Shown piece by piece: positions 3,292 to 48,407 of a stretch of DNA of 48,407 bases. The stretch lies in assembly GCA_964396485.1 (NCBI GenBank), contig CAYNFN010000413.1:1-48407 (forward strand), written 5' to 3'. The position numbers were made by a program, and so were the translations under genes. Positions within the stretch are counted from its first letter, which is position 1, and the number at the start of each line of letters is the position of its first letter. The notes under the pieces are model-generated. The model worked only from the letters and a program-made list of their open reading frames with translations, searched no databases and had not been told where the DNA came from. The DNA is from an uncultured Alcaligenaceae bacterium. GTDB lineage: Bacteria > Pseudomonadota > Gammaproteobacteria > Burkholderiales > JACQAP01.

Positions 3292-3316
3292 GCCGGCGCA
3301 GCGCTAGCACACCCGG

Positions 3317-16217: not shown

Positions 16218-16221
16218 ATCG

Positions 16222-25150: not shown

Positions 25151-25152
25151 CG

Positions 25153-33087: not shown

Positions 33088-33095
33088 GTCTGTCG

Positions 33096-34946
33096 TCACC
33101 CGTCCAGAGAAGCCAGTTTTCGAAGGATATGCTCCACGCATGTGTGTGCGTCGCACTCGGCGGTTTTCAGGTGAACCTCCGCAGCTTCAGGAACCTCATA
33201 GTCGCTATCGATACCCGTAAAATTCTTCAGCTCGCCGCGGCGCGCCTTGGCATAGAGCCCCTTCGGGTCGCGCCGCTCGCACTCCTCTATCGGAGCATCC
33301 ACGAACACTTCGACGAACTCCCTCTCCCCAAAGAGACTGCGTGCCAAGCGCCGTTCGGAGCGGAACGGGGATATGAATGATACGAGCACTATCAGGCCGG
33401 CTTCCGTCATCAGCTTGGCCACTTCGGCAACACGGCGGACGTTCTCTACGCGGTCTGCGTCGGTAAAGCCGAGATCACGATTCAGACCATGGCGCACGTT
33501 GTCGCCATCCAGCATGTACGTGTGCCGCCCGTCGGAAAGTAGACCCTTTTCCAGCAGATTCGCGATGGTGGACTTACCCGACCCCGAGAGGCCGGTAAAC
33601 CAGATACAGAGTGGCGTCTGGTGCTTGACGCTCGCCCGGGACTGCTTGCTGACCGTGACGGCCTGCCACGGAATGTTGGTCGCCCGGCGCAAGGCGAAGT
33701 CGAGCATCCCGGCGCCGAGGGTCTGGAAACTTAGCTTATCGATGATGATAAAGCCGCCCAGCGTGCGGTTGACCGAGTAAGGCTCGAAAGCGACGGGCTG
33801 GCTCAAGCTGAGGTTGACTACCCCGATCTCGTTCAGATGGAGCGTCTTGGAAGCAAGACGCGCACCGGTATTCGTATCTTCGCGGTATTTGATTTCGGTT
33901 ATTGTCGCCGTGACTTCCTTATAGTGAATCTTCAATAGGTAGGGCCGTCCCGGGATCAGCGGCTGGGCGGCCATCCATATCAATCTCGCCTCAAACTGAT
34001 CTGCGACCTGCGGCGGCTCACCCTCCGAAGCAACGACGTCGCCACGGCTCCCATCGACATCGTCCGCAAGCGTGAGCGTTACGGAAGCTGAGCCGTCAGC
34101 GTGTTCCGTGTTTCCTTTCCAGCCAACAATCTCCTTCACGCGGGACGAAACGCCGGAAGGCATGAGCCGTACGCGGTCTCCCTGCCGCACTGTGCCCGCA
34201 GCGATGCGGCCAGCGAAACCGCGAAAATCCATAATCGGGCGATTCACGCACTGCACCGGCATGCGGAATGGAGCCGGGGCTGCTGGATCGGCAATGACGA
34301 CCATATCCAGGTACGACATGAGGCTGGGCCCCTTGTACCAAGGGGTGCGCGCGCTGGGTAGCAGGACATTGTCGCCGTCCAAGGCGCAGACCGGAATCGT
34401 CTGAATCGACAAAAAATTGGATGCAGACGCGAACGCCTGATACTCGTCGGCGATCCGCTCGAATGCGCCGCGGTCGAATCGCACCTGGTCCATCTTGTTC
34501 ACTGCCAATACGATATGGCGTATCCCCATCATCGCAATGATCCGGGTGTGGCGACGGGATTGCGTCAGGACGCCTTTACGCGCGTCGATCAAGATGACCG
34601 CCAGATCCGCGGTGGACGCGCCGGTGGCCATGTTGCGAGTGTATTGCTCATGGCCGGGCGTATCGGCCACGATGAATTTTCGTCTGGGAGAGGCGAAATA
34701 GCGGTATGCGACATCGATGGTATTCCCTTGTTCGCGCTCGGCCTGCAGTCCGTCGACCAATAGGGCAAAGTCGAGGTTGTCTCCCTGGGTCCCGTATTTG
34801 CGGGAATCCGATTCGAGCGCGCGCAACTGGTCGTCAAAGATGCACTTGCTTTCATAGAGTAGCCGGCCGATCAGGGTGGACTTGCCGTCGTCAACGCTTC
34901 CACAAGTGACAAAGCGAAGCGTCTGCTTGGCGGCTTGTGATCGCAA
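33096..34946 (-). CDS. cysNC: Bifunctional sulfate adenylyltransferase subunit 1 / adenylylsulfate kinase (CysN-CysC, NodQ-like)
   Basis: 616-aa ORF with a TTG start. GTPase G1 [28 protein letters not shown]-terminal APS-kinase P-loop [14 protein letters not shown]. Confidence 0.95.
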
Positions 34947-34981
34947 GAGGGCGGCGATGCCGCCGGGGGCGGGGCGGATGC

Positions 34982-35866
34982 TCAGAAGTACCCCTCCTGC
35001 TTCTTCTTTTCCATGGATGCCGATTGATCGGAGTCGATCAAGCGGTCTTGCCGTTCGGAGGAGCGCGCATTGAAGGTCTCGGCAATGATCTCCGCTACGG
35101 TTGTAGCCGAGCTTTCAATGGCGCCGCTGAGCGGATAGCAGCCGAGCGTGCGAAAGCGCACCAGCCGCATCTCCGGGGTTTCACCCTTCGCCATGGCAAA
35201 ACGCTCGTCATCAACCATAATGAGCGTGGACCCGCGCCGCACCACTGGCCGCATCTTTGCAAAATACAGGGACACTATGGAAATCTTCTCAAGATGGATG
35301 TATTGCCAGATGTCGAGCTCCGTCCAGTTCGAAAGGGGGAATACGCGCACGCTCTCCCCCGGCCGGACATGCGTGTTGTAGAGGTTCCAAAGCTCTGGCC
35401 TTTGCGCTTTCGGGTCCCATCGATGGCCGGGGGCCCGAACCGAGAAGATACGTTCCTTGGCGCGAGACTTTTCCTCGTCTCGCCGGGCGCCGCCAAATAC
35501 CACATCGAATCCCCGACTATCGAGCACCTGCCTAAGCGCTTGGGTCTTCATTACATCGGTGTAGTAGCTTGACCCGTGCGTAAACGGATTCACGCCCGCC
35601 TCCAGGCCTTCCCGATTCACGTGCACAAAGAGTTCCATGCCCGATTCCGCGATTGCCCGCGCGCGATGCGCGTACATGTCTCGGAATTTCCATGTGGTGT
35701 CCACGTGCAGGAGCGGGAAGGGCGGGGGGCCCGGGTGGAAAGCCTTTCGCGCCAGATGTAGCATGACGGAGGAGTCCTTGCCGACCGAATAGAGCATTAC
35801 CGGGTTGCGCGCCGATGCGACGGCCTCCCGAATTATCTCGATGGCTTCGGACTCGAGGTCAGTCAT
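34982..35866 (-). CDS. cysD: Sulfate adenylyltransferase subunit 2 (CysD, NodP-like)
   Basis: Trimmed to the ATG at 35866 (ATGA overlap with the NUDIX stop). PAPS-reductase-fold motifs [48 protein letters not shown]. Confidence 0.95.
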
Positions 35867-36354
35867 TGCGCCTGGCCGCCGAGTTGCGGAGTCTCCATTC
35901 GATGCTTGCTGAGATGCAACCATACGGCGAAGCTGTCGTAGGGGGTAACGCGCCGGTTCAGCAGAAGTTCCCGTCCACCGACCGCTTCAAAGGCGGCGCC
36001 TTCATGCAAGGTGAACTTCGCAAAGGCTGCGGCGGAAACCTGCACCTCGTAGTAAATGCGGAACACTCTGCTTCCCCCTAGCTCCGAAAAATCGAAATCG
36101 AAGCGCGTCAGCACTTTCGGCGGCGCCTCGAGCTCGTATTCCAGTTCCTCTTTGAGCTCCCGTGCGAGGGCGGACAAGGGCGGTTCGCTTCCATTTACTG
36201 CGCCGCCGAAGCAGCCCCAATGGTCCGGATAGAAGATGCCAGGAATGTTATCTCGGAGCTGCATGACGTAGCGACCGTCGGCGAGAACCAGAACCGCGGC
36301 TACCGCGTCCGCGCCCCTCAGGGGTGTCTTGGCATCTAGGAGAAGGTGCTGCAA
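35863..36354 (-). CDS. NUDIX hydrolase
   Basis: 163-aa ORF. The Nudix box [25 protein letters not shown] fits Gx5Ex7REUxEE. Confidence 0.85.
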
Positions 36355-36361
36355 GGATGCG

Positions 36362-37282
36362 TCAATGCTGGGCCAGCTTGGAAATGATGGCGTCGACCGT
36401 CAGGCCGTGCGCGCCCAGGAGGTCCTCATGCTTGCCGTAAGTATGCACAAATTCATGCTTGAGCGAGAGCGCCTCGATAGCGCAACGCGCGCCCGATTCC
36501 CATGCGATCGCCTTGACCTGGTCGGCGAGGCCGCCCCGCGGCACCATTTCCTCCAGCACGACGATGCGCTGGAAACGCGCAAGCAGCTTTGAAATCCCCT
36601 CCCGATCGAGCGGCTTGACGGTGTGCGCAGAGGCCACCGCGACCGAGACGCCCTTCGATTCGAGCGCCGCGGCTGCGTCCAGGCCCAGCTTGAGGATGGG
36701 GCCGTATCCGATGACGCAGGCATCGCGCCCTTCGCGCAGCATCCGGATCTTGCCGAAGCGGAACGGCTCGGAAGCAGCGTTGCCGAGTATCGGCTCGCCT
36801 GCCTTGCCGAGTCGCAGATAGACCGGACCTTCGGTCTGGCCGACGCAATACTGCGTTGCCGCCTTCGTCTCCTCGGGGTCGCAGGGGGCGATGACACTCA
36901 TGCCGGGCATCGCCGTGGCAATTGCGACGTCCTCCATGGCGTGGTGCGTGCCTCCCAGGGTCGAATACGTCACCCCGCCGCCGACGCCAACCACGGTGAC
37001 CGGCAAGCCCTGGTAGCAGAGATCGTCGCGCACGAACTCATAGGGCCGGAACAGCGCGAAGGTGGCGATGGTGTACGCGAAAGGCCGCAGTCCGCGCATC
37101 GCCATGCCGGCGCACATGCCGATCATGATCTGCTCGGCGACGCCGGTGTTGATGAAGCGCTTCGGATACTCCTTCCTCAGCTTTTCCATCGAGCCCGCGG
37201 GCGAGATGTCGGCTACCACGACGCACAGGCGCGGATCCTTCTTGGCCTCTTCGTAGAAGACGTTCGCGAAGGTGTTCCTCAC
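36362..37282 (-). CDS. Transketolase, C-terminal (pyrimidine-binding) subunit of a split enzyme
   Basis: 306-aa ORF. FINTGVAEQIMIGMCAGMAMRG, GGTHHAMEDVAI. GTGA overlap with the N-terminal subunit gene. Confidence 0.9.
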   Translation of the reverse strand: MRNTFANVFYEEAKKDPRLCVVVADISPAGSMEKLRKEYPKRFINTGVAEQIMIGMCAGMAMRGLRPFAYTIATFALFRPYEFVRDDLCYQGLPVTVVGVGGGVTYSTLGGTHHAMEDVAIATAMPGMSVIAPCDPEETKAATQYCVGQTEGPVYLRLGKAGEPILGNAASEPFRFGKIRMLREGRDACVIGYGPILKLGLDAAAALESKGVSVAVASAHTVKPLDREGISKLLARFQRIVVLEEMVPRGGLADQVKAIAWESGARCAIEALSLKHEFVHTYGKHEDLLGAHGLTVDAIISKLAQH

Positions 37283-38115
37283 GAGCTGATCTCCTTCAGC
37301 TCGCCGAGCGCCTGCGCGTACTCGTCCTTGTTCGGCGAACGGTAGTGCCAGATGGGCACGTGCTCCATGTACGACACGCCGCGGCCCTTGACGGTCTTGC
37401 CGATCAGCACAAAGGGCTTGCCACCCTTTCTCGCGGCCACCGCCGCATGCACCGCTGCCGCATCATGGCCGCTGACTTCGGCTGTCTCCCAGCCGAAGGC
37501 GCGGAACTTCTCTGCGACGGGGAACACCGCGGGATGGTTCTCGCTTATGCGCTCGAGGCCACCGAAATCGTTGAGGTCGACGAAAAGCAGCAGGTTGTCG
37601 AGCTTGTAGTTGGCCGCCATCTGCACGGCCTCCCAGGTTGAGCCCTCCTGCAGCTCCCCGTCCGAGAGCACGACGTGCACACGGGCATCAGTCTCCTTCA
37701 GGTACTCCGCATAGGCCATGCCGACCGCGATGCCGAGTCCGTGCCCGAGCGAACCGGTGGACGCTTCGATGCCTGGTGTGCCGATATCCGGGTGCGCGCC
37801 CAGCACTCCGGCCGGCGTGCAGTAGCGCTCGATTTCTGCGCTCGGCATGATCCCGAGGTCCTCGAGGATCACGTATTGGGAGACACAGCCGTGGCCCTTG
37901 GACATGACGAAGACGTCGCGGAAGCGCCCGCTGGCGCTCAGCGCCGGGCGCATGAGCGCGTGGTAGATGACGTCGGTCATTTCGAGGCACGAGAACGCCG
38001 GCGCGATATGAAGGGCGCCGACACGTTGCGAGACGTCCAGGATCCGCCTGCGGTATTTCAGGCAGCGCGCCCGCGCCGCGGCGGCGTTGAATGCGACATT
38101 CACGATGCTAGCCAC
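37279..38115 (-). CDS. Transketolase, N-terminal (ThDP/diphosphate-binding) subunit of a split enzyme
   Basis: 278-aa ORF with a GTG start. HIAPAFSCLE, SKGHG, GSLGHGLGIAVGMA, VVLSDGELQEGSTWEA (GDG-type ThDP motif). Confidence 0.9.
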   Translation of the reverse strand: MASIVNVAFNAAAARARCLKYRRRILDVSQRVGALHIAPAFSCLEMTDVIYHALMRPALSASGRFRDVFVMSKGHGCVSQYVILEDLGIMPSAEIERYCTPAGVLGAHPDIGTPGIEASTGSLGHGLGIAVGMAYAEYLKETDARVHVVLSDGELQEGSTWEAVQMAANYKLDNLLLFVDLNDFGGLERISENHPAVFPVAEKFRAFGWETAEVSGHDAAAVHAAVAARKGGKPFVLIGKTVKGRGVSYMEHVPIWHYRSPNKDEYAQALGELKEISS

Positions 38116-39100
38116 GCATCACGTAGTCGGTCGAGACCCCGCGCAGTTGATCGCGGTAGCGCTTGCCCCATTCGACCATCTCGCCCAGCCCTTCCTGCCA
38201 GCCGACCTGCGGCTCCCAGCCGAGATCGCGCTTGATCGCGCCCGAATCGAGCCAGTAGCGCGAATCCTGCCCGAGCCGGTCGGGCGCCATCTCGCAGAGC
38301 TGCTCGAAGGGCATGCCCAGGGCTTCGGCGCACAGTTCCACCACCCTGCGGATGCTGGTGGGCTCCGCGGGGCCTGCGTTATAGATCTTGCCGAGTGCCG
38401 CTTTTTCCGCGACCAGATGGACCGCGCGGCCCAGGTCGCGCGCATGGATGTAGGATTTCTCCGCCCTGCCGCCGCCCTGCAGCGGCAGCTTCTTGCCGGT
38501 CAGGCCGCAAAGAATGGTCTTCGGGATCACGCGATGCAGCAGCTGCCCCGGACAATAGGCATTCGAGGGCCGGATGATGTTCATCGGGAACTTCAGGTAC
38601 TTGTGCACCGACTCGAGGTACATGTCGAACGCGACCTTGGAGGCCGCGTAAGGGCTGGTCGGCTTGATCGGCTCGTCTTCCTTGGTTGCATGGCTCACCG
38701 AGCCGTACATCTCGGACGTGCCGATCTGGATGAAGCGCTCGAGCCAGTTGCGCTTCATAAGCTCCTCGCACAGCTTGGAGAGCGCCATCGAATTGGTCTC
38801 GAAGAAGCGCCAGGAGTGCTTCCAGGACACCGCGCCTTCGCCCTGGGCCGCATAATTGACGATCACCTCGGGCTTCACCCGGTCCATCAGCTCAAGCAGC
38901 AGGTCCATCTCGTAGGTCAGATGATAAGCGTGGTATTCGTAGCCGGGCTGCCGCTCGATACCGAGCGAAAACGGCTCCGGGCGTAGCGGGTTGCGGCCGA
39001 CACCGACCACTCGCTTCGGATTGGCGTGCTTCAGCAGGTAGAAAGCGGTGTGGATCCCAAAGGATCCACCGCCACCGAGAATCATGTAGGTTTTGCTCAT
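38108..39100 (-). CDS. NDP-sugar 4,6-dehydratase-like extended SDR (GMD-type TSExYG active-site context)
   Basis: 330-aa ORF. ILGGGGSFG, IGTSEMYG, YAASKVAFD (YxxxK). Confidence 0.85.
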   Translation of the reverse strand: MSKTYMILGGGGSFGIHTAFYLLKHANPKRVVGVGRNPLRPEPFSLGIERQPGYEYHAYHLTYEMDLLLELMDRVKPEVIVNYAAQGEGAVSWKHSWRFFETNSMALSKLCEELMKRNWLERFIQIGTSEMYGSVSHATKEDEPIKPTSPYAASKVAFDMYLESVHKYLKFPMNIIRPSNAYCPGQLLHRVIPKTILCGLTGKKLPLQGGGRAEKSYIHARDLGRAVHLVAEKAALGKIYNAGPAEPTSIRRVVELCAEALGMPFEQLCEMAPDRLGQDSRYWLDSGAIKRDLGWEPQVGWQEGLGEMVEWGKRYRDQLRGVSTDYVMRG

Positions 39101-39759
39101 CTGTTGATAATTGTCCAGTAGTAGTCGCCAGTGTAGCCCGCCTCCGAGTAAACCTTGAGCCAGCCCTCGGGGTAGTCGTGGAACCGCGCCGTTATAATCC
39201 AGCTCAGCGCGATCTCTCTCTCCTCGGGGGTGCGATAGCTATCCACCTGCACGAACGCCCGTCCCCTGCTCAGGCGTTGAATCTCCCGCATGGCGACAAC
39301 CGCCCCTTCGCGGGTGAGATTGTGAATGGTATTAAGCGAGATCACGCAATCGAAGGACCCGTCTGGAAATGGCAGGCTCTCCGCAGAGCCAAGGTGCAAG
39401 CGCCCGACAACTTCCCGCTCGCAGTGCATCAGCGCGTAGTACGAGATGTCGAGCCCGAACGCCTCCAGCCCCGGGCACTCGAGCATCAGGTCCTTGACGA
39501 GGAATCCCTTGCCGCATCCCACGTCGAGCAGGCGCATGCCCACCTCGAGCCCGAAGTGCCTGATCATGTCGCGCGCGACGGAACGCCAGCGGCCGTCGTA
39601 GCGGTAGCCGCCATAGCCGTACTTGCGGTCGCCGTCCCAGTATTCCTGGCCGAATTCTCTCGAGATCGCGATCAAGGCATCATCTTTCGCCTCGGCGCGC
39701 TTCTCGATATTGCGCTTTGTCTTCGGCAACGAGCCCAGCAGGTCGATTTCCCTACCCAT
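39097..39759 (-). CDS. Class I SAM-dependent methyltransferase
   Basis: 220-aa ORF. LLDVGCGKGFLVKDL, FDCVISLNTIHNL. ATGA overlap downstream and an 8-bp overlap upstream. Confidence 0.85.
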   Translation of the reverse strand: MGREIDLLGSLPKTKRNIEKRAEAKDDALIAISREFGQEYWDGDRKYGYGGYRYDGRWRSVARDMIRHFGLEVGMRLLDVGCGKGFLVKDLMLECPGLEAFGLDISYYALMHCEREVVGRLHLGSAESLPFPDGSFDCVISLNTIHNLTREGAVVAMREIQRLSRGRAFVQVDSYRTPEEREIALSWIITARFHDYPEGWLKVYSEAGYTGDYYWTIINR

Positions 39760-40624
39760 TTCGGGACTTCCTCAATCCATCCTCCAGCGTCGTATAGCGG
39801 AAATCAGGGAACGCACTGCGGCACACGGCAATGTCGAACGGCCGGTAGCCGTTGTGCGGCATCGGACCTGACCGGGCGGTGGTCTTGATGCTTGATTTTC
39901 CGCCTTCCATTTTTACTATCATTGTTGCGATATCCATGAACGAATGCACTTCACCGGTCGCGATGTTGAGCACGCCGGCGCTGCACCGGTAGAGGACCTG
40001 TGCCACGAGCTCAGCCACGTCGTCGATGAACACGTGGTCGCGCCGCTCCTCGCCGTTGCCGAACAACACGATGTCCTCGCCCTTCGCCGCGAGCCGTCGG
40101 AAGCGGTTCGGGCCGTAGCCATTGTGGGGATCGGCGGAACCGTAGAGCAGGCTCGGCCGCAGGATCGCGAGCGGCGCCTTGATCTCGTTCTGGAACAGCA
40201 CCTCGCGCGCAAGATGCATCGCGCCATGCAGGCTGCCGGGGGACGCACAGGAGCGTTCCGTGAGCGGACTGTCGCTGTCCGCATAGACCGCATCGGAGCT
40301 GATGTTCACCACGTGCGCGACGGACGCCTTCGACAGTGCACGCGCCATCGCCCGCGCCATCACCATGTTCTCGACCAGCATATCCGCGTTCTTGACCGGC
40401 GCCTTGGCCGACGCGGTGACTACTGAGTCGGTTTCCCGCAGGAACTTCCCCAAACCGCCGTCTGCATCGCCTGCGAGAAGATCCACTTCCTTGCGGGAAA
40501 CGCGCAATACCGAAACGCCCTCGCGCTCCAGGCGGTTGGCAACCGCGCCGCCGACAAAACCTGCCGCGCCGAGAATCACGACCCGGGGAGGCTTCTGCTC
40601 CCGCGAATTCAGATGCCGCATCAT
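39752..40624 (-). CDS. Atypical extended SDR (Rossmann fold intact, canonical YxxxK apparently replaced by HxxxH)
   Basis: Trimmed to the ATG at 40624 (ATGA overlap). VVILGAAGFVGG, ISSDAVY, then PGSLHGAMHLAREV where P..YG.SK...E is expected. Confidence 0.8.
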   Translation of the reverse strand: MMRHLNSREQKPPRVVILGAAGFVGGAVANRLEREGVSVLRVSRKEVDLLAGDADGGLGKFLRETDSVVTASAKAPVKNADMLVENMVMARAMARALSKASVAHVVNISSDAVYADSDSPLTERSCASPGSLHGAMHLAREVLFQNEIKAPLAILRPSLLYGSADPHNGYGPNRFRRLAAKGEDIVLFGNGEERRDHVFIDDVAELVAQVLYRCSAGVLNIATGEVHSFMDIATMIVKMEGGKSSIKTTARSGPMPHNGYRPFDIAVCRSAFPDFRYTTLEDGLRKSRNG

Positions 40625-41865
40625 GAACGTCCCAGCGTGTGAATGCGCAGGCCCGCAGCCGCGGCCGCTTTTCCATCGAGGACTTTGTACGGATCGAGCA
40701 CAATGCGGCCGCGCATTGCGGCCGCGATCTTGGCCGGTTCGATGCTCCGGTATTCCGGCCACGGCGTGAGGATCATGAGCGCGTCGGCGCCGCGCGCGAC
40801 TTCGAGCGGATCTTTTTCCGTTGAACCCGGCACGACCGGGTCGTGCAGGCGCAGCGCGGTGCCCTGCAACTGCGCGATAGTGGCTAGCGAGGGCGAATTT
40901 TTCACCGAATTGGTGTTTTCCTTGTAGGCGAGGCCCCAGACGGCAACCGTCGCATTCGGGTTGCTGTCGAGCAATGCCTCGCGGATCCTGCGCGCTGCCC
41001 AGTCGCGGCGGTGCCGGCTGTTCGCGACCCAGGCCCTAACCACGCCCGCATCGGTTCCCAGCTCGCCGGCGAGGCGGATCACGGTCTGGAGGTCGCGCTC
41101 CAGGTTCCCGCCCGCGATGCCGAGGCCGGGAGAGAGGTAGGCGTGCGCCCCGATACGCTTGTCGAGTTTGAGCGCTGGCGCAATCTCCGACCAGTCCGCG
41201 TCCATGCGCTCGCAGAGCTCGGCGAGCGTATTGGCAACGCTAACCGAGGCGACCAGGCAGCAATTGATTGCGATCTTGGCGAGCTCCGCGCTTTCGTAGC
41301 GCATCGGCAAGATCGGACAGCCGAACGCCGCCAGAAATTCGCCATAGGCCGCCGGCAGCGGTCTAGCCGGATCGGCGCAGCCGACGACGAACCGCTCCGG
41401 ATGGACGGCCCGCTCCACGGCAATGCCGAAGACGAGCGTCTCGACTTGGTAGTAGAGCCGCGTCGGCGCGAGCCCGATCTTGCGTGTGAAGCCAGGTGGC
41501 ACTTGGCACAGCACTACCAATGTCGAATCTTTTCCAAGAGCCGGAATGACCCGTTCGAGGAGATCTTGCACCCCCGTCAGGTCGCTGCGCCCCTGATCGT
41601 CGGTCGCGACGTCGGTAGAGATGTAGACCACCGCGCAACGGCCAAGATCCGACGCAATGGTCGTGAATGTCGAGAGTCCTTTCTTTGTTCGAAGAATTTC
41701 CTCGAGCCCCGGCTCGGTGACGGTAGGACGTCCTAGCCTCAACCCTTCGATCGCGGCACCGTTGGTGTCGAATCCGACAATCTGAAAACCGCGCTGCATT
41801 GCCGCCGCGGCCGAAATGATGCCGAGGTGCGTCATGCCCGCAAAACCGATGACCGGCCGGCTCAT
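40621..41865 (-). CDS. UDP-glucose/GDP-mannose dehydrogenase-family protein lacking the catalytic cysteine
   Basis: ATG at 41865 with GGAG 5 nt upstream (the ORF-track GTG is at 41871). Rossmann VIGFAGMTHLG. Family C-terminal motif WGLAYKENTNSVKNSPS. The active-site block reads SPGLGIAGGNLERD versus the canonical P.[FL]G.GG.C[LF]PKD, with Asn codon AAC at 41104-41106. Confidence 0.85.
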   Translation of the reverse strand: MSRPVIGFAGMTHLGIISAAAAMQRGFQIVGFDTNGAAIEGLRLGRPTVTEPGLEEILRTKKGLSTFTTIASDLGRCAVVYISTDVATDDQGRSDLTGVQDLLERVIPALGKDSTLVVLCQVPPGFTRKIGLAPTRLYYQVETLVFGIAVERAVHPERFVVGCADPARPLPAAYGEFLAAFGCPILPMRYESAELAKIAINCCLVASVSVANTLAELCERMDADWSEIAPALKLDKRIGAHAYLSPGLGIAGGNLERDLQTVIRLAGELGTDAGVVRAWVANSRHRRDWAARRIREALLDSNPNATVAVWGLAYKENTNSVKNSPSLATIAQLQGTALRLHDPVVPGSTEKDPLEVARGADALMILTPWPEYRSIEPAKIAAAMRGRIVLDPYKVLDGKAAAAAGLRIHTLGRS

Positions 41866-41884
41866 GCGCACTCCAGGAGCGCCC

Positions 41885-42817
41885 TCATGCGTTCGCCATC
41901 GCGACCGCCTTCGTACCGAGCTTACGCAGCGTGCGCTGCAGCCACAGGTCGCGCCCGAGATCGGTCGTCGTCCCAGATGCGCATAGCGACTTGAAATGCG
42001 CGTATTCCAGGGCCCAAGTCGGGTCCGGTTGCTCGAGCGTCACCGGATCCTCATGTGGACGACCGGACGGCAGCACGCGCGTGCGCAAGGTGAAGGTGCT
42101 CGGACCCCATTTGCAAAGCGAACTGATGTGCGCCGAGCCTTTCTCGGCGAAAACATCGCAGGTGAAATGGTTGCGCCACGATAGCAGCGTCATCTCCAGT
42201 TCCAGTTGCGGCCGGCTGCCCCTGGAGCCGAGCACGACATGGTCCGGCGCCTTGTTCTCAAAGCGCCTTGCCGATATCACCGACAGGTCATCATCGATCG
42301 CGTCGAACCAGAAGAGAGCAGTGTCGAGCAGGTGCGAGCCGAGGTCGGGCAAGACGCCCGCGCCAGTATCGCGCCATGCTGAGTCGCGCACGAGTCGCGC
42401 CGTGCCGTTGCCGTAAAACATCCTGCAATGGTAGATCTCGCCCAGCACTCCCGACTGGATCGCTTCGCGCATGCGCACGTAGTGCGGCTCGAAACGGTGG
42501 TTGTAAGCGGTGTAGCAGACCGCATCGTGCTCGCGCGCGATGCGCTCCAGCTGCGCGACATCTGCATCGCGCGCCGTCCAGAGCGGTTTCTCGACCAACG
42601 CGTGCTTGCCGTTCGAAAGCAGGTACTCGAGGACTTCTGCCTTGGGTTCATCCGGCGTGCAGACCAATGCCGCGTCATAGCGTTCCAATGGCACGTCCCC
42701 GAGCGACTTGAAGTCCGCCTCCGGTCGCGCCGGGTCCACGCTGGCGACGAAGTCCTTCCCCGCTGCGGCGCGGCGCTTTGCGCCCTGGACACCCAACCCT
42801 ACGACAATCACCTTCAA
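41885..42817 (-). CDS. Gfo/Idh/MocA-family oxidoreductase
   Basis: 310-aa ORF. TTG start in a TTGA overlap with the upstream stop. MKVIVVGLGVQG, HALVEKPL, LPDLGSHLLD. Confidence 0.85.
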   Translation of the reverse strand: MKVIVVGLGVQGAKRRAAAGKDFVASVDPARPEADFKSLGDVPLERYDAALVCTPDEPKAEVLEYLLSNGKHALVEKPLWTARDADVAQLERIAREHDAVCYTAYNHRFEPHYVRMREAIQSGVLGEIYHCRMFYGNGTARLVRDSAWRDTGAGVLPDLGSHLLDTALFWFDAIDDDLSVISARRFENKAPDHVVLGSRGSRPQLELEMTLLSWRNHFTCDVFAEKGSAHISSLCKWGPSTFTLRTRVLPSGRPHEDPVTLEQPDPTWALEYAHFKSLCASGTTTDLGRDLWLQRTLRKLGTKAVAMANA

Positions 42818-44379
42818 GCTTTGCCGTTCTCGCTGTAGTTCGCCTGCTGCTCAGCCAAGTCGATCTTGCCGCCTACATCCTCCGGCGTAACCGGCACGTT
42901 GCCGTCCACCTCGCATTCGCACGCCGCGGCCACCGAACCGAGTATCGTCGCGATCGCGTCAGACCCGGTGGCAAGCTTGGCGAGCGTTGCGTAAGCAAGA
43001 AGTGCATCGCCCGCTCCCACCGCATCGACCACTCGATCCACGAACGAGTCAATGACGATGAATGACTCAAGCGATTCGTGATTGCCACTGCGGCACGTAA
43101 GCACGCCGCGCTCACCAAGCTTCAGGATCAGAGTCTTGCATTGCGCCGCGTCGTAAAGAGAGGACGCAAGCGGGCGGATTCCGGAGTCCTGGTCGGCGAG
43201 CGCGAACCGCGCCTCGCGCTCGTTCGGCGTGATGAGGTCGAACCCCTTGAATTCGGTGATGTTGCCCCAGCGGCTCGCAACCTGGCTGTCGGCTACCTTG
43301 AACCGCCCTGCCGGAATCGCATCCACCAGCCGCGGGATAGTGCGGCGGTTGAAGACGCCGTGCCGGAAGTCGCTGAACACGACCGCATCCGAGGGCACCT
43401 CACGCACCGCGGCGGCGAGCTTCTCCACGATCTCGTCCGAGATCGAGCGGTTGTCCAGCGTGTCGATTTTGAGCAGACGGTAGCCACCGGCGACGATGGC
43501 GTTCTTGTTGGTCGTCGGGCGGGTCTTGTCGATGATGGCGCGGCAGTCCACGCCACGCTTTTTCAGCCCATCGAGGACGAAGTCCTTGAGACTGTCGTCG
43601 CCCAGCACGGTGGAGAACACCACTTCGGCCCCCGCAGCGCGGAGATGCTCTGCTACCACTGCTGCACCCCCGATGTAATCGTCGCGACGCTCGTAGAGCA
43701 CGCTCATGGTCGGCGTCTTGGTCTGGCCGCCCACCATCGCGGTCTGGGTGTAGCTGTCCACGATCGTGTCGCCGACGACATGAACGCGGTATTGCCCCAT
43801 TTTCTTGAGCGCGGCACGCAGCGAGTCGAAGGTGAGCCCTTCGCTGTCCATGAAGGTGAGCAGCTTCTCGCTCTTGATGGAGGGCGGCGCAAGGTCAATG
43901 AGGCGCGTGGACGAATAGACAATATCGCCCGGGGTGAAGATTATCTCGCCGCCGTAGGCCTTGAGCGCGTCGACCTCTTCCTGAGTCTTGGCGGGCAGAC
44001 CGGCCGCGGTGTACTCGTAGCCCTTGGCGAAGAAATCCGGCTGCAGCAGCACGATGTTCTCGAGCGGAGTCGGATTGCGGTCGATGACCACGTAGTCGAC
44101 CATCTCGAACGCCGCCAGGTTGAGCGCTCGCAGCTGCTGCGGAATGTGGGGACGGTGCTGGCCCTTGCTGATGTGGCGGTCGGCGGTGAGACTGGCGACG
44201 AGAATGTCCGCCTTGGTTTTCGCGTAGAGCAGGTGCCGCACGTGCCCGGGATGCACGACGTCGAACACGCCGTGGCACATGATGACTTTCTTCTGGCGCG
44301 GCCGCGCGCCGAGAATTGGTTTCAGTTCCTCCGGCGTCTTGATCTTGTGCCGGTATTTTTCGGTCAGCGAGGACAGCAA
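42814..44379 (-). CDS. Bifunctional sugar-1-phosphate nucleotidyltransferase (cytidylyltransferase fold, N-terminal) / PfkB sugar kinase (C-terminal): HldE-like but in reversed domain order
   Basis: 521-aa ORF. TTG start with AGGAG 7 nt upstream. N-domain CHGVFDVVHPGHVRHL (HxGH). C-domain HVVGDTIVDSY ... DAVGAGDALLAY (PfkB motif). Confidence 0.9.
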   Translation of the reverse strand: MLSSLTEKYRHKIKTPEELKPILGARPRQKKVIMCHGVFDVVHPGHVRHLLYAKTKADILVASLTADRHISKGQHRPHIPQQLRALNLAAFEMVDYVVIDRNPTPLENIVLLQPDFFAKGYEYTAAGLPAKTQEEVDALKAYGGEIIFTPGDIVYSSTRLIDLAPPSIKSEKLLTFMDSEGLTFDSLRAALKKMGQYRVHVVGDTIVDSYTQTAMVGGQTKTPTMSVLYERRDDYIGGAAVVAEHLRAAGAEVVFSTVLGDDSLKDFVLDGLKKRGVDCRAIIDKTRPTTNKNAIVAGGYRLLKIDTLDNRSISDEIVEKLAAAVREVPSDAVVFSDFRHGVFNRRTIPRLVDAIPAGRFKVADSQVASRWGNITEFKGFDLITPNEREARFALADQDSGIRPLASSLYDAAQCKTLILKLGERGVLTCRSGNHESLESFIVIDSFVDRVVDAVGAGDALLAYATLAKLATGSDAIATILGSVAAACECEVDGNVPVTPEDVGGKIDLAEQQANYSENGKA

Positions 44380-44389
44380 GGTTTAACTC

Positions 44390-45382
44390 CTACCTGAGAT
44401 ACTCGAACCATGTCCTGGTCGCCCGGGCGATCGAATCCGGCTCCCACAGCGGAGCATTCTTCCAGTATGCGATGTCGGCGAGAATCCTCCCCACGCCTTC
44501 CTCGAAGCTCACCTGTGGCGCCCAGCCTAAGTCGGCCTTGATCGGTGCGATGTCCGCCCAGGTGCAATCAGGCTCGCCCGGGCGCTTCGGAATATAGACT
44601 CTCTCGCCGCCGAGCAGCTCGATCAATCGGTTGACCGACTGCGGATTGCCGGCACCCAGGTTCCAGAAGCGCCCCGTGAGCCCGGTTTCGGCTGCCGCGA
44701 GAAAAGCGGTTGCTACATCCGTGCCATATAGGAAGTCGCGCCGCTGGCTGCCATCGCCGACCACTGTGTACGGCTTGCCGGCGAGCTTCTGCCTTAGGAA
44801 TACACCGAACACCGCACCGTAGGCACCCGAGGTGCGCGAACGGGTGCCGTAAGCGTTAAAGATGCGGATCGAATTCACCGGCAATTTGTAGACCCGGTGC
44901 CAATGGAACGCGGCCTGCTCGCCCTGGTACTTGGAGAGCGCGTACGGATACTGCGGCGCGATCGGGTGGTCGGCGCGCGTCGGCACCTCGGCTAGGCCGT
45001 AGCACGACGATGACGCGGCGTAGACGAACTTCTGCACGCCGGCATGCCGCGCGCATTCGAGCACGTGCACGGTGCCGAGTACGTTTGCCGACATGTACTC
45101 GGTGGGCTGCTCGATCGAAGGCACGATGTCGCCGATGCCGGCGAAGTGAAACACGTATTTTGCGCCGCGAAACAGCACGTCGTCGGGGGCGTAGCTGCGG
45201 ATGTCGCGCTCCTCCAGCATGAAATCCGGATTGCGCGCGTGTTGCGTCAGATTCTCGCGCCGGCCGCCAAAGAGATTGTCCATGGCGCGCACCGCATACC
45301 CCCTTTGCAGCAGGAGGTCCACCATGTGGCTGCCGATGAACCCGGCGCCGCCCGTGACGACGGCGATCGGGTGCGAGGTCAT
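44390..45382 (-). CDS. Extended-SDR NAD-dependent sugar epimerase/dehydratase
   Basis: Trimmed to the ATG at 45382 (ATGA overlap). AVVTGGAGFIGSHMV, ASSSCYG, YALSKYQGE. Confidence 0.9.
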   Translation of the reverse strand: MTSHPIAVVTGGAGFIGSHMVDLLLQRGYAVRAMDNLFGGRRENLTQHARNPDFMLEERDIRSYAPDDVLFRGAKYVFHFAGIGDIVPSIEQPTEYMSANVLGTVHVLECARHAGVQKFVYAASSSCYGLAEVPTRADHPIAPQYPYALSKYQGEQAAFHWHRVYKLPVNSIRIFNAYGTRSRTSGAYGAVFGVFLRQKLAGKPYTVVGDGSQRRDFLYGTDVATAFLAAAETGLTGRFWNLGAGNPQSVNRLIELLGGERVYIPKRPGEPDCTWADIAPIKADLGWAPQVSFEEGVGRILADIAYWKNAPLWEPDSIARATRTWFEYLR

Positions 45383-46386
45383 GCCGCCTTGAGTTCCTTC
45401 AGCCGGCGGACGTTGAAGTAGAACGTGTCGTCCATGCTTTTCGGCAACTTGCCCGCCTTGAACGCCCTGCACAGGTCGCGCACGGCGTCCTCAATCTTGT
45501 ACTTGGGCTGAAAACCGATCACGCGCCGGATCTTGTCGGAATTGACGTGGTAGGAGCGAATGTCATCGGTTGGCGTGGTGACGATTGGGATCTCGCCCTT
45601 CTCCGGGAATTCCTCCTGCGCGATGCGCTTGACGATCTGCGCAATCTCCATGATGGAGAGGTTCTGGACGCCAGCGTTGAAGGTCTGGCCAGCAATCTTG
45701 TCGTCAGGAACCTCGAGCAGAAGTTTGTAGAGGTCGCACATGTCCTGGACGTGCAGGTTGGGGCGCTTCTGCGAACCGCCGAACACTGTGATCTTGCCGG
45801 CGTTGATGGCGTGGTTGGTGAGAATATTGACAGAGAGATCGAGGCGTTGGCGCGGCGCGTAGCCGCACAGCGTTGCCGGCCGGATCGTCACGCACACGAA
45901 CTCGGGCGACTGGTGCTTGAACAGGAGCGGCTCGCACATGCCTTTGTACTTGTTGTAGAGCGTGAGCGGCACCAGCGGATGGTCTTCGGTGACGTCGGGC
46001 GACTCCGAAACGCCATAGACCGAGCTGGAGGAGCAATAGATGAAGCGCTTCACGCCGGCCTTCTTCGCCGCAACGACCATCGGCTCGAAGGCGTCCAGGT
46101 TGATCGTGGTCGAGAGCTTCTCGTCCAGCTCGAAGCTCGCGTCGTTCGAGATGCAGGCGAGGTTGATGACCGCCTCGATGCCTTTGAATTCCTCCGCAAG
46201 CTTTTTCGTATCGCGGATATCGGCCTTCACCACCTTCAGATTGGGATTGCTCTTCGGCAGGAAGTGATCGCCGAAGTACATGACGTCCAGAGCGGTGACC
46301 TTGTAGCCCGCCTCGAGAAGCTGCGGCACGAGAAGGCTTCCCACATAGCCGGCGCCGCCGGTGACGAGTACGTTCTTGAATCTCAT
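45379..46386 (-). CDS. Extended-SDR NAD-dependent sugar epimerase
   Basis: 335-aa ORF. VLVTGGAGYVGS, SSSSVYG, YNKYKGMCE. Confidence 0.9.
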   Translation of the reverse strand: MRFKNVLVTGGAGYVGSLLVPQLLEAGYKVTALDVMYFGDHFLPKSNPNLKVVKADIRDTKKLAEEFKGIEAVINLACISNDASFELDEKLSTTINLDAFEPMVVAAKKAGVKRFIYCSSSSVYGVSESPDVTEDHPLVPLTLYNKYKGMCEPLLFKHQSPEFVCVTIRPATLCGYAPRQRLDLSVNILTNHAINAGKITVFGGSQKRPNLHVQDMCDLYKLLLEVPDDKIAGQTFNAGVQNLSIMEIAQIVKRIAQEEFPEKGEIPIVTTPTDDIRSYHVNSDKIRRVIGFQPKYKIEDAVRDLCRAFKAGKLPKSMDDTFYFNVRRLKELKAA

Positions 46387-46387
46387 A

Positions 46388-47122
46388 TCAGGCTGCCGCG
46401 CGGGTGGCGATCGTGTAGCCCGCCGCTTTCGCGTCCTTGTAGAACATTTCCACGGTCTCCAATGAATAAGTGTCGAGGTTCTTGCCGACGAGCGCGAGCT
46501 TCTTGAGGATGTCGTTCGTGGCGGTGATGATGTGGCAACCGATCGCGTCGGCCTGGAAGATGTTGAGCAGCTCCCGCGGGCTCGCCCAGATCAGTTCCGC
46601 CTTGGGTTTCGCGCGCATGATCTTCACGGCTTCGGCCATGAGCGGCACCGGGTCGCGGCCGGTGTCAGCGATGCGCCCTGCGAACACGGAGATGATCGCC
46701 GGAGTGTCCGGCGCCAGGCGCTCTGTAACACGTCGCACCTGGTCGAGTGTGAGGAGCGCGGTGACGTTGAGTTTCACGCCCGCCTTGGAGAGCCGCTCGA
46801 TGAGCGATCCCGAGAACTCACCCTTGGTGTTGGTCACCGGAATCTTGACGCTGACGTTCCTGCCCCAAGACGCGATCTCGAGCGCCTGTTGCTCCATCTG
46901 GCCGAAATCGTCGGCGAACACCTCGAACGACACCGGCCGGTCGGAGATCGCTCGCAGCACTTCGTGCGCGAAAGCCTTGTAATCGGCCACGCCCGCCTTG
47001 CGCATCAAGGTCGGGTTGGTGGTGAAGCCCTTGATCAACGGGTTCGCGGCCATTTCCTTCATGCCCGCGAGATCGGCGCCGTCGGCGAAAAGTTTTACCT
47101 TGAGGGCCTTGAGATCGGCCAT
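46388..47122 (-). CDS. Small (TalC/Fsa-type) transaldolase / fructose-6-phosphate-aldolase-family enzyme
   Basis: 244-aa ORF. FADGADL, GFTTNPTLM, Schiff-base Lys context NVSVKIPVT, SVFAGRIAD. GGGAG lies upstream of the ATG. Confidence 0.9.
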   Translation of the reverse strand: MADLKALKVKLFADGADLAGMKEMAANPLIKGFTTNPTLMRKAGVADYKAFAHEVLRAISDRPVSFEVFADDFGQMEQQALEIASWGRNVSVKIPVTNTKGEFSGSLIERLSKAGVKLNVTALLTLDQVRRVTERLAPDTPAIISVFAGRIADTGRDPVPLMAEAVKIMRAKPKAELIWASPRELLNIFQADAIGCHIITATNDILKKLALVGKNLDTYSLETVEMFYKDAKAAGYTIATRAAA

Positions 47123-47135
47123 TTGAACTCCCTGA

Positions 47136-47678
47136 CTAGAGTTGTCGGACGGACAGCAGGATAAGCTTGACCGCGTCAGGCAGCGATTTTACCGCAACAT
47201 ACGGTTTATCCGGGTATTTTTCCTCGTAATTTCGCTCGACGAAGTAAGCCTTGCAGCCTGCAGCGTGTGCGGCGCCGATGTCGCGCCAACGATCCCCGAC
47301 AAGAAAACTCGCCGCGAGATCGATTCCTTTCTCCGAGGCAGCTTCGAGCAGCATCCCGGGCTTGGGCTTGCGGCAGGCGCAGTTTTCCTCGGCGACGTGA
47401 TAGCAGACCTTGACCGCGTCGATCGCGAGCGAGGCGAGCAATCGCGCGTGCATCGCCTCGACCACCTCTCGGCGCTGCTTGCCGGTCGCGACGTCGGGCT
47501 GATTGGTGACGACCACATTTAGAAAGCCCGCCGCGCGCAACTGCTCGAGCACGTCGGGAACCCCCGGCAGGATTTCGAATTCGGCAAGCGAATCAGGTGG
47601 ATAGGGCTTGCCATCGCGCACCACGGCCCGGTTGATGACGCCGTCGCGGTCGAGAAAGACCGCCCGCCGGCCTACCAC
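47136..47678 (-). CDS. gmhB: HAD-IIIA sugar bisphosphate phosphatase (D,D-heptose 1,7-bisphosphate phosphatase-like)
   Basis: 180-aa ORF with a GTG start overlapping the upstream stop. AVFLDRDGVIN, VVTNQPDVATG, FLVGDRWRD. Confidence 0.85.
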   Translation of the reverse strand: MVGRRAVFLDRDGVINRAVVRDGKPYPPDSLAEFEILPGVPDVLEQLRAAGFLNVVVTNQPDVATGKQRREVVEAMHARLLASLAIDAVKVCYHVAEENCACRKPKPGMLLEAASEKGIDLAASFLVGDRWRDIGAAHAAGCKAYFVERNYEEKYPDKPYVAVKSLPDAVKLILLSVRQL

Positions 47679-48253
47679 TTGGTCGCGGTCTGCTGCAGCG
47701 CCGGGTGCGACACCAGGCAGTGCCAGACGACCGCGTGGAAGGCTTCTGTGTGGGGCGTCACGCGGGACGCGTCCACGGTGGGAACCACGATCACGCAGTC
47801 ACCTACCTGCTTGGTGTAGCCGCCGTCGCGCCCGACCACGCCGAAGACTTTCATGCCGCGGCTCTTGGCTTCCTTGAGGCCAGCGACGATATTGGGGCTG
47901 ACGTTTTTCTCAAGGTTGCCGCCGCCCACCGAAAACACGAACACCGCGTCCTTGTCGTTGCCGCGGCTCGTCTTGAGCCAGGCGGAAAACACCGTGTCCC
48001 AGCCCTCATCGTTGGTGCGGGCAGTGAGCTCGGACACGTTGTCGGTCGGCGCGTAGGCTTCGATGCCACATAGCTTCCGAAAGTCGTTCACCGCGTGCCC
48101 GCAATTTCCGGCGCTGCCGCCGACACCGAGAAAGAACAGCCGCCCGCCGCCCTCGCGCAATGCCGCGAGCTCGCGCGCAAGGCGCTCGATCGCGGCAAGA
48201 TCGATGGTCTGCGCGACTTTGACGACTTCCTGAAAGTAGGTCTGGGTGTGCAT
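47672..48253 (-). CDS. gmhA: SIS-domain sugar-phosphate isomerase (phosphoheptose isomerase-like)
   Basis: Trimmed to the ATG at 48253 (MHTQTYFQEV...). LFFLGVGGSAGNCGHAVNDF, VFSVGGGN. First gene of the long minus operon. Confidence 0.9.
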   Translation of the reverse strand: MHTQTYFQEVVKVAQTIDLAAIERLARELAALREGGGRLFFLGVGGSAGNCGHAVNDFRKLCGIEAYAPTDNVSELTARTNDEGWDTVFSAWLKTSRGNDKDAVFVFSVGGGNLEKNVSPNIVAGLKEAKSRGMKVFGVVGRDGGYTKQVGDCVIVVPTVDASRVTPHTEAFHAVVWHCLVSHPALQQTATKW

Positions 48254-48277
48254 GGAGAAGGGCCGAAAAAGGATCAA

Positions 48278-48306
48278 ATTATAGAATGCCGCCTTCCCCT
48301 TCGTAA
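48278..48306 (-). promoter_or_regulatory. Candidate sigma70-type promoter of the 20-gene minus-strand operon
   Basis: Perfect TATAAT on the minus strand at 48283-48278, 24 nt upstream of the ATG at 48253. TTACGA (3/6 to TTGACA) at 48306-48301 with a 17-bp spacer. On the plus strand TAGAAT (48282-48287) faces the divergent gene. Confidence 0.4.
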
Positions 48307-48311
48307 CCCGG

Positions 48312-48407
48312 ATGGACCCTCTCGTCACCGCGGCCGTGCTCGCCGCCTCTCTCCTGCATGCGTCCTGGCATGCGCTCGTCAAATCGAGCGGCGACCAGGT
48401 GATCGCG
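48312..48407 (+). CDS. 5' end of a divergent gene, possibly an EamA/DMT-type membrane transporter (window-truncated)
   Basis: The ATG at 48312 opens a stop-free frame to the window end: MDPLVTAAVLAASLLHASWHALVKSSGDQVIA. It is hydrophobic, and the LLHASW.ALVK pattern recalls DMT-family N-termini. Too short for a firm call. Confidence 0.35.
   Translation, partial: MDPLVTAAVLAASLLHASWHALVKSSGDQVIA

Follow-up and report, generated by a model that had tools for sequence, protein, structure and literature searches.

A cysteine-less UDP-glucose dehydrogenase-family protein and its Gfo/Idh/MocA partner in a conserved operon with heptose- and octose-type genes from an Alcaligenaceae bacterium

Introduction

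The closest described gene set to the one reported here is that for the octose of the lincosamide antibiotics, which consists of the transaldolase LmbR, the C8 isomerase LmbN, the C8 phosphatase LmbK, the kinase LmbP, the guanylyltransferase LmbO, the epimerase LmbM, the UDP-glucose dehydrogenase (UGDH)-like dehydrogenase LmbL, the oxidoreductase LmbZ and the aminotransferase LmbS (PMC4351081, Table 2). In this pathway, GDP-octose is converted to GDP-lincosamide by LmbM, LmbL, CcbZ and CcbS (PMC12945683). Here we describe a pair of genes which, compared by family and context, belongs to the same two protein families as LmbL and LmbZ/CcbZ, and which is encoded in a 48,407-nucleotide contig of an uncultured Alcaligenaceae bacterium (CAYNFN010000413.1 of assembly GCA_964396485.1, positions 1 to 48,407; this whole stretch is called the window below). 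The pair consists of a UGDH-family dehydrogenase without the catalytic cysteine, referred to as UGDHx, and an oxidoreductase of the Gfo/Idh/MocA family, referred to as Gfo. The operon around the pair appears to make an eight-carbon sugar that is destined for a polysaccharide of the cell surface.

The conversion of the GDP-octose in the lincosamide pathway reportedly includes a 6,8-dehydration that needs LmbL and CcbZ together. To our knowledge, LmbL/CcbZ is the sole characterised precedent for such a pair, and the two-enzyme dehydration is known to us from this single antibiotic pathway. A UGDH-family gene beside a Gfo/Idh/MocA gene is also found in the O-antigen cluster of the Pseudomonas aeruginosa B-band, where the two genes are WbpA and WbpB. 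With regard to the catalytic cysteine, the Cys mutants of the Streptococcus pyogenes and human UGDHs are reportedly blocked at the second oxidation.

Results

UGDHx is a UGDH-family protein without the catalytic cysteine

The open reading frame (ORF) of UGDHx (40621-41871, minus strand) encodes 416 amino acids if the GTG at 41871 is used and 414 from the ATG at 41865, and the ATG, which has a GGAG 5 nt upstream, is the more likely start. The 414-residue protein is identical to the database protein P0001, whose longest contig is the window. It carries the N-terminal (PF03721), central (PF00984) and C-terminal (PF03720) UGDH domains of Pfam, and in NCBIfam it scores narrowly above the cut-off of TIGR03026, 'nucleotide sugar dehydrogenase' (197.3 versus 189.8 bits). 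It is far under every equivalog cut-off for UDP-glucose and UDP-N-acetylmannosamine dehydrogenases, with 143, 110 and 37 bits against cut-offs of 700, 670 and 757 for the UDP-glucose 6-dehydrogenase models TuaD, AglM and PRK15057, and 91.5 bits against 750 for WecC. When compared with the PDB sequences by phmmer, UGDHx matched 30 UGDH-family chains (best E = 5.7e-36), and the WGLAYKENTNSVKNSPS motif, which a preliminary description of this DNA had listed among the hallmarks of the family, aligned to GL(T/A)FKPNTDDMR(D/E)(A/S)PS of the solved enzymes. The AlphaFold2 model, for which an alignment of 60 sequences was the input, reached a predicted local distance difference test score (pLDDT) of 96.6 and a predicted template-modelling score (pTM) of 0.92, and it matched human UGDH, Burkholderia BceC and Sphingomonas UgdG with template-modelling scores of 0.87-0.93 at 24-26% identity (Foldseek). 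UGDHx is confirmed by these results as a true member of the UGDH family with the UGDH fold. In the databases, its relatives are annotated as UDP-glucose 6-dehydrogenase or as nucleotide sugar dehydrogenase.

The preliminary description had placed an Asn at the position of the catalytic Cys and had proposed that this column be checked by alignment. In the phmmer alignments to 4a7p, 3vtf and 3gg2, the UGDHx segment GLGIAGGNLERD falls on G(P/L/C)GYGGSCFPKD, with GGNLERD of UGDHx in register with GGSCFPKD of the solved UGDHs and Asn254 on the catalytic Cys. A profile of 60 diverse relatives gave the same register for Asn254 against 3gg2, 4a7p and 2y0c-e (E down to 5e-79). The codon read from the sequence (Table 1) and both kinds of alignment therefore agree on the Asn. 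The earlier view that a base-call error is unlikely also held, because GLGIAGGNLERD is carried by all eight close homologues read (65-100% identity) and Cys is absent from the column in more distant ones. When 1.84 billion cluster representatives were scanned in full with HMMER, 13,094 matched at E < 1e-3, and among the best 150 representatives of 50% clusters (33-64% identity, E up to 5e-68) the Cys column holds Asn in 129, His in 16, another residue in 5 and Cys in none. A sequencing error or a pseudogene is ruled out by the motif, which is kept in every relative examined.

Compared with canonical UGDH, AlgD, WecC, Cap5O and CalS8, UGDHx has the same three-domain fold, the same Lys and Asn in the central helix, the Asp of the xxKD block, and the DxRIG and NDP (nucleoside diphosphate)-binding FK.NT motifs. 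K197, N201 and D258 are the equivalents of Lys204, Asn208 and Asp264 of the S. pyogenes enzyme, and they are kept in 121, 120 and 124, respectively, of 124 full-length representatives, in which E142, E194 and R257 are conserved as well. The NDP-binding block YK.NT.S.KNSP is strongly conserved in relatives down to 33% identity. In contrast, other positions of the canonical enzymes are replaced throughout the subfamily, in addition to the change of Cys to Asn (or His). The dinucleotide loop, which is GxGYVG in canonical UGDHs, reads GMTHLG in UGDHx and G(L/M)(S/T)HLG in the subfamily (GxxHLG in short) with an invariant His13, and from its sequence NAD binding by this altered loop is plausible. 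The K-S-T block has become L-S-Q, with an invariant Gln121 where canonical enzymes have the Thr that positions water, the Pro-Lys ahead of the catalytic Asp has become Glu-Arg, and Phe has taken the place of the second Glu in NPEFLREG. In the AlphaFold2 model, Asn254 sits at the N-terminal end of helix 253-269. Since the Lys, Asn, Asp and other residues are kept and new invariant residues (His13 and Gln121) have been acquired, the residue pattern is, as far as can be read from conservation, that of a retuned and presumably active site rather than a decayed one.

No Cys is invariant anywhere in the relatives of UGDHx; the best conserved are C183 (81%), C77 (80%) and C218 (62%, n = 124 full-length). 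The cysteines of AINCC, from which the catalytic Cys might have come according to the preliminary description, are conserved in 13% and 6%, and they were rejected as a replacement nucleophile. C183 (AFGCPIL; codon 41317-41319, minus strand) is specific to the subfamily, as canonical UGDHs have no Cys at that column, and it lies just ahead of strand 185-189 in the AlphaFold2 model.

The Gfo/Idh/MocA oxidoreductase is a genuine partner of UGDHx

The Gfo gene lies immediately upstream of UGDHx, as had been noted before, with a gap of 19 nt to the ATG and 13 nt to the GTG. Such a 19-nt spacer with its own GGAG is seen at this junction only. Relatives have a 4-nt stop/start overlap here. The Gfo gene itself starts with TTG, which overlaps the stop of the gene upstream (TTGA). 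Relatives of UGDHx (Asn and His types, with the Thr clade described below left uncounted) are encoded by at least 562 genomes of a set with one genome per GTDB species, and the genome-level loci and taxonomy given here are those of the best 80. Of the 76 genome loci that extend 1 kb or more upstream, 66 have an orthologue of the window Gfo immediately upstream and on the same strand, 8 have it within about 1 kb and 1 has it at another place in the locus, so that it was present in 75 of 76 and undetected in 1. The triad of nucleotidyltransferase/kinase, Gfo and dehydrogenase genes is kept even beside members, the His variant included, that are 32-36% identical to UGDHx by tblastn (33-38% by phmmer). 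In addition, a natural fusion was found in P0160 (719 aa; L085, 1434-3593), which has Gfo at the N-terminus and a Cys-less dehydrogenase at the C-terminus. The adjacency, the near-universal presence, the retention beside distant members and the fusion substantiate the pair that had been postulated from the window, and the Gfo gene is a genuine partner of UGDHx and no chance neighbour.

The Rossmann domain of Gfo is shortened, and its Pfam match begins at profile position 50. The motifs GLGVQG (the GxGxxG loop), VEKPL (EKP) and DLGSH (D-x3-H) are each kept in 70% or more of the 76 orthologues, for the most part in 95% or more, and with the loop, EKP and the D-x3-H pair retained, the protein looks catalytically competent from its sequence. 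Its best NCBIfam matches reach 35-44 bits against cut-offs of 330-650, and the archaeal UDP-N-acetylglucosamine (UDP-GlcNAc) 3-dehydrogenase model gives 34.7 bits against a cut-off of 450.

The pair lies in a conserved operon

The genes of the operon (Table 1) are transcribed in the order GmhA-like isomerase, GmhB-like phosphatase, transaldolase, the short-chain dehydrogenases/reductases (SDRs) SDR1 and SDR2, nucleotidyltransferase/kinase, Gfo, UGDHx, SDR3, methyltransferase, RmlB-like SDR and transketolase, and this order is nearly unchanged in dozens of genomes. The presence of the cassette genes was counted in 49 loci with full flanks. SDR1, SDR2, Gfo and the methyltransferase are found in all 49 loci, the nucleotidyltransferase/kinase in 48, SDR3 in 47 and the transaldolase in 45, and an RmlB-like SDR at 40% identity or more is present in 33, with the transketolase following the RmlB-like gene in 32. 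The true start of the GmhA-like gene is probably internal (homologues have 193 aa). For SDR2, the probable ATG at 45382 overlaps the stop of SDR1 (homologues have 332 aa), and the ATG of SDR3 at 40624 overlaps the stop of UGDHx (ATGA). Overlaps of 4 nt are thus seen as ATGA at UGDHx/SDR3 (40621-40624) and at SDR1/SDR2 (45379-45382), and as TTGA at the nucleotidyltransferase-kinase/Gfo junction (42814-42817). As judged from the sequence, these start/stop overlaps suggest that the genes along the operon may be translationally coupled.

Heptose or octose chemistry had been guessed for the dehydrogenase in the preliminary description, and the operon fits this guess, as the transaldolase is conserved there together with the GmhA-, GmhB- and HldE-like genes. 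In its front half, the cassette has the same families as the ADP-heptose pathway of GmhA, HldE, GmhB and HldD, but the matches are well under the equivalog cut-offs, the domains of HldE are reversed, and there is a dedicated transaldolase besides, which the octose pathway has as well. In the nucleotidyltransferase/kinase, rfaE_dom_II is matched at residues 26-162 and rfaE_dom_I at 191-502, both under the equivalog cut-offs, and the HldE equivalog itself gives 147 bits against a cut-off of 521, with a domain order opposite to that of HldE. The transketolase at the end of the operon suggests a thiamine diphosphate-dependent two-carbon extension of, or branch on, a keto-sugar intermediate.

Relatives of UGDHx are widespread and a second Cys-less clade exists

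The best 80 of the at least 562 genome relatives belong to Alpha-, Beta- and Gammaproteobacteria, Nitrospirota, Acidobacteriota and others. The cultured carriers include Labrys okinawensis DSM 18385, Labrys miyagiensis NBRC 101365, Azospirillum griseum, Azospirillum sp. TSO22-1 and Rhodopseudomonas sp. B29, and the cassette was also seen in a Bradyrhizobium metagenome-assembled genome (MAG; L036) as well as in the B29 strain (L054). By tblastn, the Asn clade has no member in the plasmid collection.

The same plasmid search found a protein on pRCCGE525c of Rhizobium jaguaris that is about 34% identical to UGDHx. It has Thr at the Cys column, GGPFAGGTLARD, and the signatures GLWHLG and SSQMPVG, and the same Cys-less features are present in all 120 of its best homologues. 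Its cassette has the order SDR, UGDH-like dehydrogenase, adh_short, Gfo, GHMP kinase, NTP_transferase, SIS, HAD and transaldolase. The Thr-type clade is like UGDHx in its His and Gln signatures, in the loss of Cys and in the association with Gfo, SIS, HAD and transaldolase genes. It is unlike UGDHx in having Thr for Asn and an adh_short SDR between the dehydrogenase and Gfo, and its cassette has a GHMP kinase and an NTP_transferase in place of the HldE-like fusion of the window. These are the kinase and nucleotidyltransferase families of LmbP and LmbO, and the Thr-type cassette is in this respect closer to the lincosamide octose genes than the window cassette is. There are consequently two distinct Cys-less clades with two sugar-activation systems, each tied to Gfo and to the trio of transaldolase, isomerase and phosphatase. 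An additional fusion protein, P0250 (722 aa), joins an adh_short SDR to a Cys-less dehydrogenase and mirrors the adh_short neighbour in the Thr-type cassette.

With regard to LmbL itself, no Streptomyces lincolnensis was among the best 80 of the at least 562 genome relatives, no named LmbL was among the matches listed for the Thr-type query, which were close proteobacterial relatives only, and the high-GC representative clusters searched for its kin held only Acidimicrobiales and Gemmatimonas. A match on a Kitasatospora plasmid, considered as an LmbL-like candidate, was a canonical Cys-containing UGDH.

Relatives were also seen in viral or phage-like settings. In L089 (1-16429), a His-variant dehydrogenase occurs with an SDR, the nucleotidyltransferase/kinase, Gfo, a methyltransferase and an RmlB-like SDR among phage-like genes, which include a DNA methylase, GcrA, many small ORFs and an 808-aa protein. 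In IMG/VR, 8 viral contigs (L091-L098) encode UGDHx relatives. In five of them (L093-L097) the match is limited to dehydrogenase residues 1-270, and no Gfo gene and no GG[NH]xERD motif were detected there; in L094-L096 the partial dehydrogenase directly follows the nucleotidyltransferase/kinase.

A polysaccharide cluster makes up the rest of the window

Outside the operon, the window (375-29916 and beyond) holds the genes of a polysaccharide cluster, a dense glycan-tailoring region in which glycosyltransferases and TylF and FkbM methyltransferases are encoded together with the features listed at the end of Table 1. None of the three DegT genes of the window belongs to the conserved core, and a weakly similar DegT gene follows the transketolase in some loci. 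A module for the supply of 3'-phosphoadenosine 5'-phosphosulfate (PAPS) is present along with a sulfotransferase, and by their sequences the two imply that the polysaccharide of the cluster would be sulfated.

Table 1. Positions of the features discussed in the text (numbering of the window unless a locus is named)
Feature	Position	Strand	Basis or remark
UGDHx, Cys-less UGDH-family dehydrogenase	40621..41865	-	3 UGDH Pfam domains, TIGR03026, AlphaFold2 model
Asn254 codon AAC, catalytic-Cys column	41104..41106	-	sequence read; phmmer and profile alignments to PDB UGDHs
Gfo/Idh/MocA oxidoreductase, 310 aa	41885..42817	-	PF01408, PF22725, PF02894
GmhA-like SIS-domain ketose/aldose phosphate isomerase	47672..48382	-	PF13580; gmhA model 59 bits, cut-off 209
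GmhB-like HAD-IIIA sugar-bisphosphate phosphatase	47136..47678	-	HAD Pfam families; GmhB models 95-120 bits, sub-cut-off
Transaldolase, TIGR02134 type	46388..47122	-	PF00923; TIGR02134 362.6 bits, cut-off 281.95
SDR1, extended SDR epimerase/dehydratase	45379..46386	-	PF01370
SDR2, extended SDR epimerase/dehydratase	44390..45382	-	PF01370, PF16363; Heptose_epim, LegB, GalE all sub-cut-off
Reversed HldE-like nucleotidyltransferase (N) + PfkB kinase (C)	42814..44379	-	PF01467 + PF00294
SDR3, RmlD/GDP-fucose-synthase-like reductase/epimerase	39752..40624	-	PF01370, PF04321
Class I S-adenosylmethionine-dependent methyltransferase	39097..39759	-	PF08241 + related families
RmlB-like NDP-sugar 4,6-dehydratase-type SDR	38108..39100	-	TIGR01181 171 bits, cut-off 365
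Split transketolase	36362..38115 (N subunit 37279-38115, C subunit 36362-37282)	-	PF00456; PF02779, PF02780
Thr-type cassette, L100 (R. jaguaris pRCCGE525c, NZ_CP032695.1 971642-988877)	7019-14898 of L100		
Thr-type cassette, L102 (Smithellaceae MAG)	8045-15690 of L102		gene order as in R. jaguaris
ABC-2 exporter pair	15453-17019		
Radical SAM/SPASM protein	8774-9847		
DegT-family enzymes (three)	9983-11269, 22463-23779, 29926-31059		
Aminoglycoside-3-N-acetyltransferase-like protein	11266-12156		
Second, complete Gfo/Idh/MocA gene	32065-33156		
Sulfotransferase	24949-25917	+	
PAPS-supply module	33096-35923	-	CysD-like 34982-35923 + CysN/APS-kinase fusion 33096-34946
Large ORFs without Pfam match	1999-6417, 7327-8748, 13298-14704, 18904-21153, 31068-32111		

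Discussion

Compared with the lincosamide genes, the operon of the window has several features in common. At the level of enzyme types, a transaldolase, an SIS isomerase, an HAD phosphatase, a kinase, a nucleotidyltransferase and an SDR epimerase are found in both, in addition to the UGDH-family/Gfo pair. The setting is different, as the Lmb genes belong to an actinomycete antibiotic cluster, whereas the window module stands in Gram-negative clusters of the polysaccharide or O-antigen type with an ABC-2 transporter, glycosyltransferases and a sulfotransferase. The downstream methyltransferase, RmlB-like SDR and split transketolase are likewise features that set the window cassette apart from the lincosamide pathway. 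From family and context we regard LmbL/LmbZ as a precedent for the UGDHx/Gfo pair, and UGDHx would by the same token be a member of the LmbL clade.

We propose that UGDHx and Gfo together carry out the NAD-dependent oxidation of an NDP-octose at C6, coupled to 6,8-dehydration, and we give this reading a probability of roughly 0.55. We infer here that the substrate is an octose, that C6 is the oxidation site, that dehydration follows and that the work is divided between UGDHx and Gfo as described below. The transaldolase would supply an octulose phosphate, which the GmhA-like isomerase would turn into the aldose, and the PfkB kinase domain, the GmhB-like phosphatase and the nucleotidyltransferase domain would convert the aldose to an NDP-octose, probably ADP-linked. 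In UGDH, it is the exocyclic C6 of the sugar that lies against the nicotinamide, and UGDHx would bind this NDP-octose as UGDH binds UDP-glucose, with C6 toward NAD+. This carbon is a secondary carbinol in an octose, and the Lys197/Asn201/Asp258 machinery would take one hydride from it to give the 6-ketone. No aldehyde would arise for a Cys to capture, and a ketone cannot go on through a thiohemiacetal, so that the nucleophilic Cys would be dispensable and could be replaced by Asn, or by His or Thr in the sister clades. The 6-ketone would also acidify the C7-H, so that the 8-OH could leave, and Gfo would then give the hydride back, which would make the net reaction a redox-neutral 6,8-dehydration to a keto-8-deoxy-octose. 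Finally, the downstream SDR, the methyltransferase, the RmlB-like enzyme and the transketolase would elaborate the product for a polysaccharide exported by the ABC transporter. By analogy, the product of UGDHx is probably a keto or deoxy sugar and not a sugar acid. RmlB and Gmd, as mechanistic analogues only, likewise use oxidation, elimination and hydride return to reach a redox-neutral keto-deoxy sugar; however, each of them is one SDR with tightly bound NAD+, whereas the window has two unrelated folds that would act two carbons further along the chain.

Several points weigh against the 6,8-dehydration of an octose. Sedoheptulose 7-phosphate could be all that the transaldolase supplies; the substrate would then be a heptose, and oxidation of a heptose at C6 cannot trigger the beta-elimination of a terminal OH. 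Activation in the window would be by the HldE-type fusion, whereas LmbP and LmbO are a GHMP kinase and an NTP_transferase. Unlike the lincosamide pathway, in which LmbS is a DegT-type enzyme for transamination at C6, the conserved window cassette has no aminotransferase, so that the product would not be a lincosamine-like 6-amino sugar. In addition, one Cys, C183, does reach 81% conservation. If no dehydration takes place, the pair may be a redox epimerase or a generator of keto sugars, in which C6 (or C7) of an NDP-heptose or NDP-octose is oxidised and the ketone is either reduced by Gfo from the opposite face or handed to another enzyme. The evidence for a two-electron dehydrogenase with a reductase partner would serve this explanation equally, a raised supply of sedoheptulose 7-phosphate may be the only role of the transaldolase, and the SIS, HAD and nucleotidyltransferase/kinase proteins are recognisably GmhA-, GmhB- and HldE-like. 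However, a different substrate is suggested by the scores of these proteins, which are far under the equivalog cut-offs; 45 of the 49 full loci retain the transaldolase, as does the independent Thr-type cassette, and three to four SDR epimerases/reductases are already there for such steps. On balance, we consider a pair that works without dehydration rather unlikely, although it is the main alternative.

The other explanations appear much less probable. UGDHx might still perform the four-electron oxidation to a uronic acid in a Cys-independent manner, with water attacking the aldehyde, as the fold and the Lys/Asn/Asp set are kept and the database labels of the relatives are UDP-glucose 6-dehydrogenase; but the very Thr that positions water is Gln in this subfamily, the second Glu of NPEFLREG is Phe, Pro-Lys is Glu-Arg, none of the 150 representatives has the Cys, and the cassette has nothing typical of uronic-acid use, which leaves this activity improbable. 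The loss of the nucleophile and the change of the glycine-rich loop from GxGYVG to G(L/M)(S/T)HLG could also be taken as signs of a dead pseudoenzyme that scaffolds or regulates the Gfo oxidoreductase, and the obligate pairing and the known fusion would agree with such a role. Dead enzymes usually drift at exactly such active-site positions, whereas GG[NH][LI]ERD, K197, N201, D258, E142 and the NDP-binding block are conserved down to 33% identity, and we therefore place little credence in a scaffold. As for a module of the WbpA/WbpB type, in which a UDP-GlcNAc 6-dehydrogenase and a UDP-GlcNAcA 3-dehydrogenase contribute to 2,3-diamino uronic acids, the gene arrangement is alike and DegT aminotransferases are encoded in the window. 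WbpA-type enzymes, however, require the catalytic Cys that UGDHx lacks, the NCBIfam matches of Gfo stay at 35-44 bits where 330-650 would be needed, and the conserved neighbours are heptose/octose-building genes rather than WbpD, WbpE and WbpI, so that this assignment is hardly credible.

If the octose reading is followed to the final sugar, the cassette of 11-13 genes may be an unrecognised route to a higher-carbon O-antigen sugar with a C8 core, in which the Cys-less dehydrogenase/Gfo pair performs an omega-deoxygenation. This is a tentative proposal, and we consider it less likely than not. The C8 core would possibly be extended or branched by the split transketolase and then methylated. 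Candidate products are a caryophyllose-like sugar of Rhodopseudomonas palustris, which is C4-branched and 3-O-methylated, and the bradyrhizose of photosynthetic Bradyrhizobium (PMC9912281, PMC4743980). In Bradyrhizobium ORS285, an 11-gene sugar-modification operon around 'gdh' is required for the bradyrhizose O-antigen, and its genes are unassigned (PMC4743980). The peptides DAFLPYK and DMSLRTYF of the published gdh primers gave no convincing match to any cassette gene, and metagenome scans with patterns derived from these primers gave no match, by which the link to bradyrhizose is neither made nor disproved. The cultured carriers of the cassette make it possible to identify the sugar product.

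In conclusion, the UGDHx/Gfo pair is not a new principle, but it represents a large and consistently mis-annotated enzyme class. Automatic annotation would predict a uronic acid for UGDHx, which is very probably the wrong product. By analogy with LmbL/CcbZ, the pair would extend two-enzyme dehydration to Proteobacteria, Nitrospirota and Acidobacteriota that are widespread in soil and water, and it would give the known type of pair a new setting, namely Gram-negative surface polysaccharides with HldE-type activation and with tailoring by a transketolase and a methyltransferase. If the proposed reading is true, the clades that have Asn, His or Thr in place of the Cys form a new functional class of UGDH-family proteins, to which the label UDP-glucose 6-dehydrogenase is systematically misapplied. 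The signature of GxxHLG, SQxP and GG[N/H/T][L/I]xRD, together with an adjacent Gfo gene, would then re-label a large group of genes (at least 562 genomes and many metagenomic clusters) as parts of pathways that provide higher-carbon deoxy sugars for polysaccharides of the cell surface.

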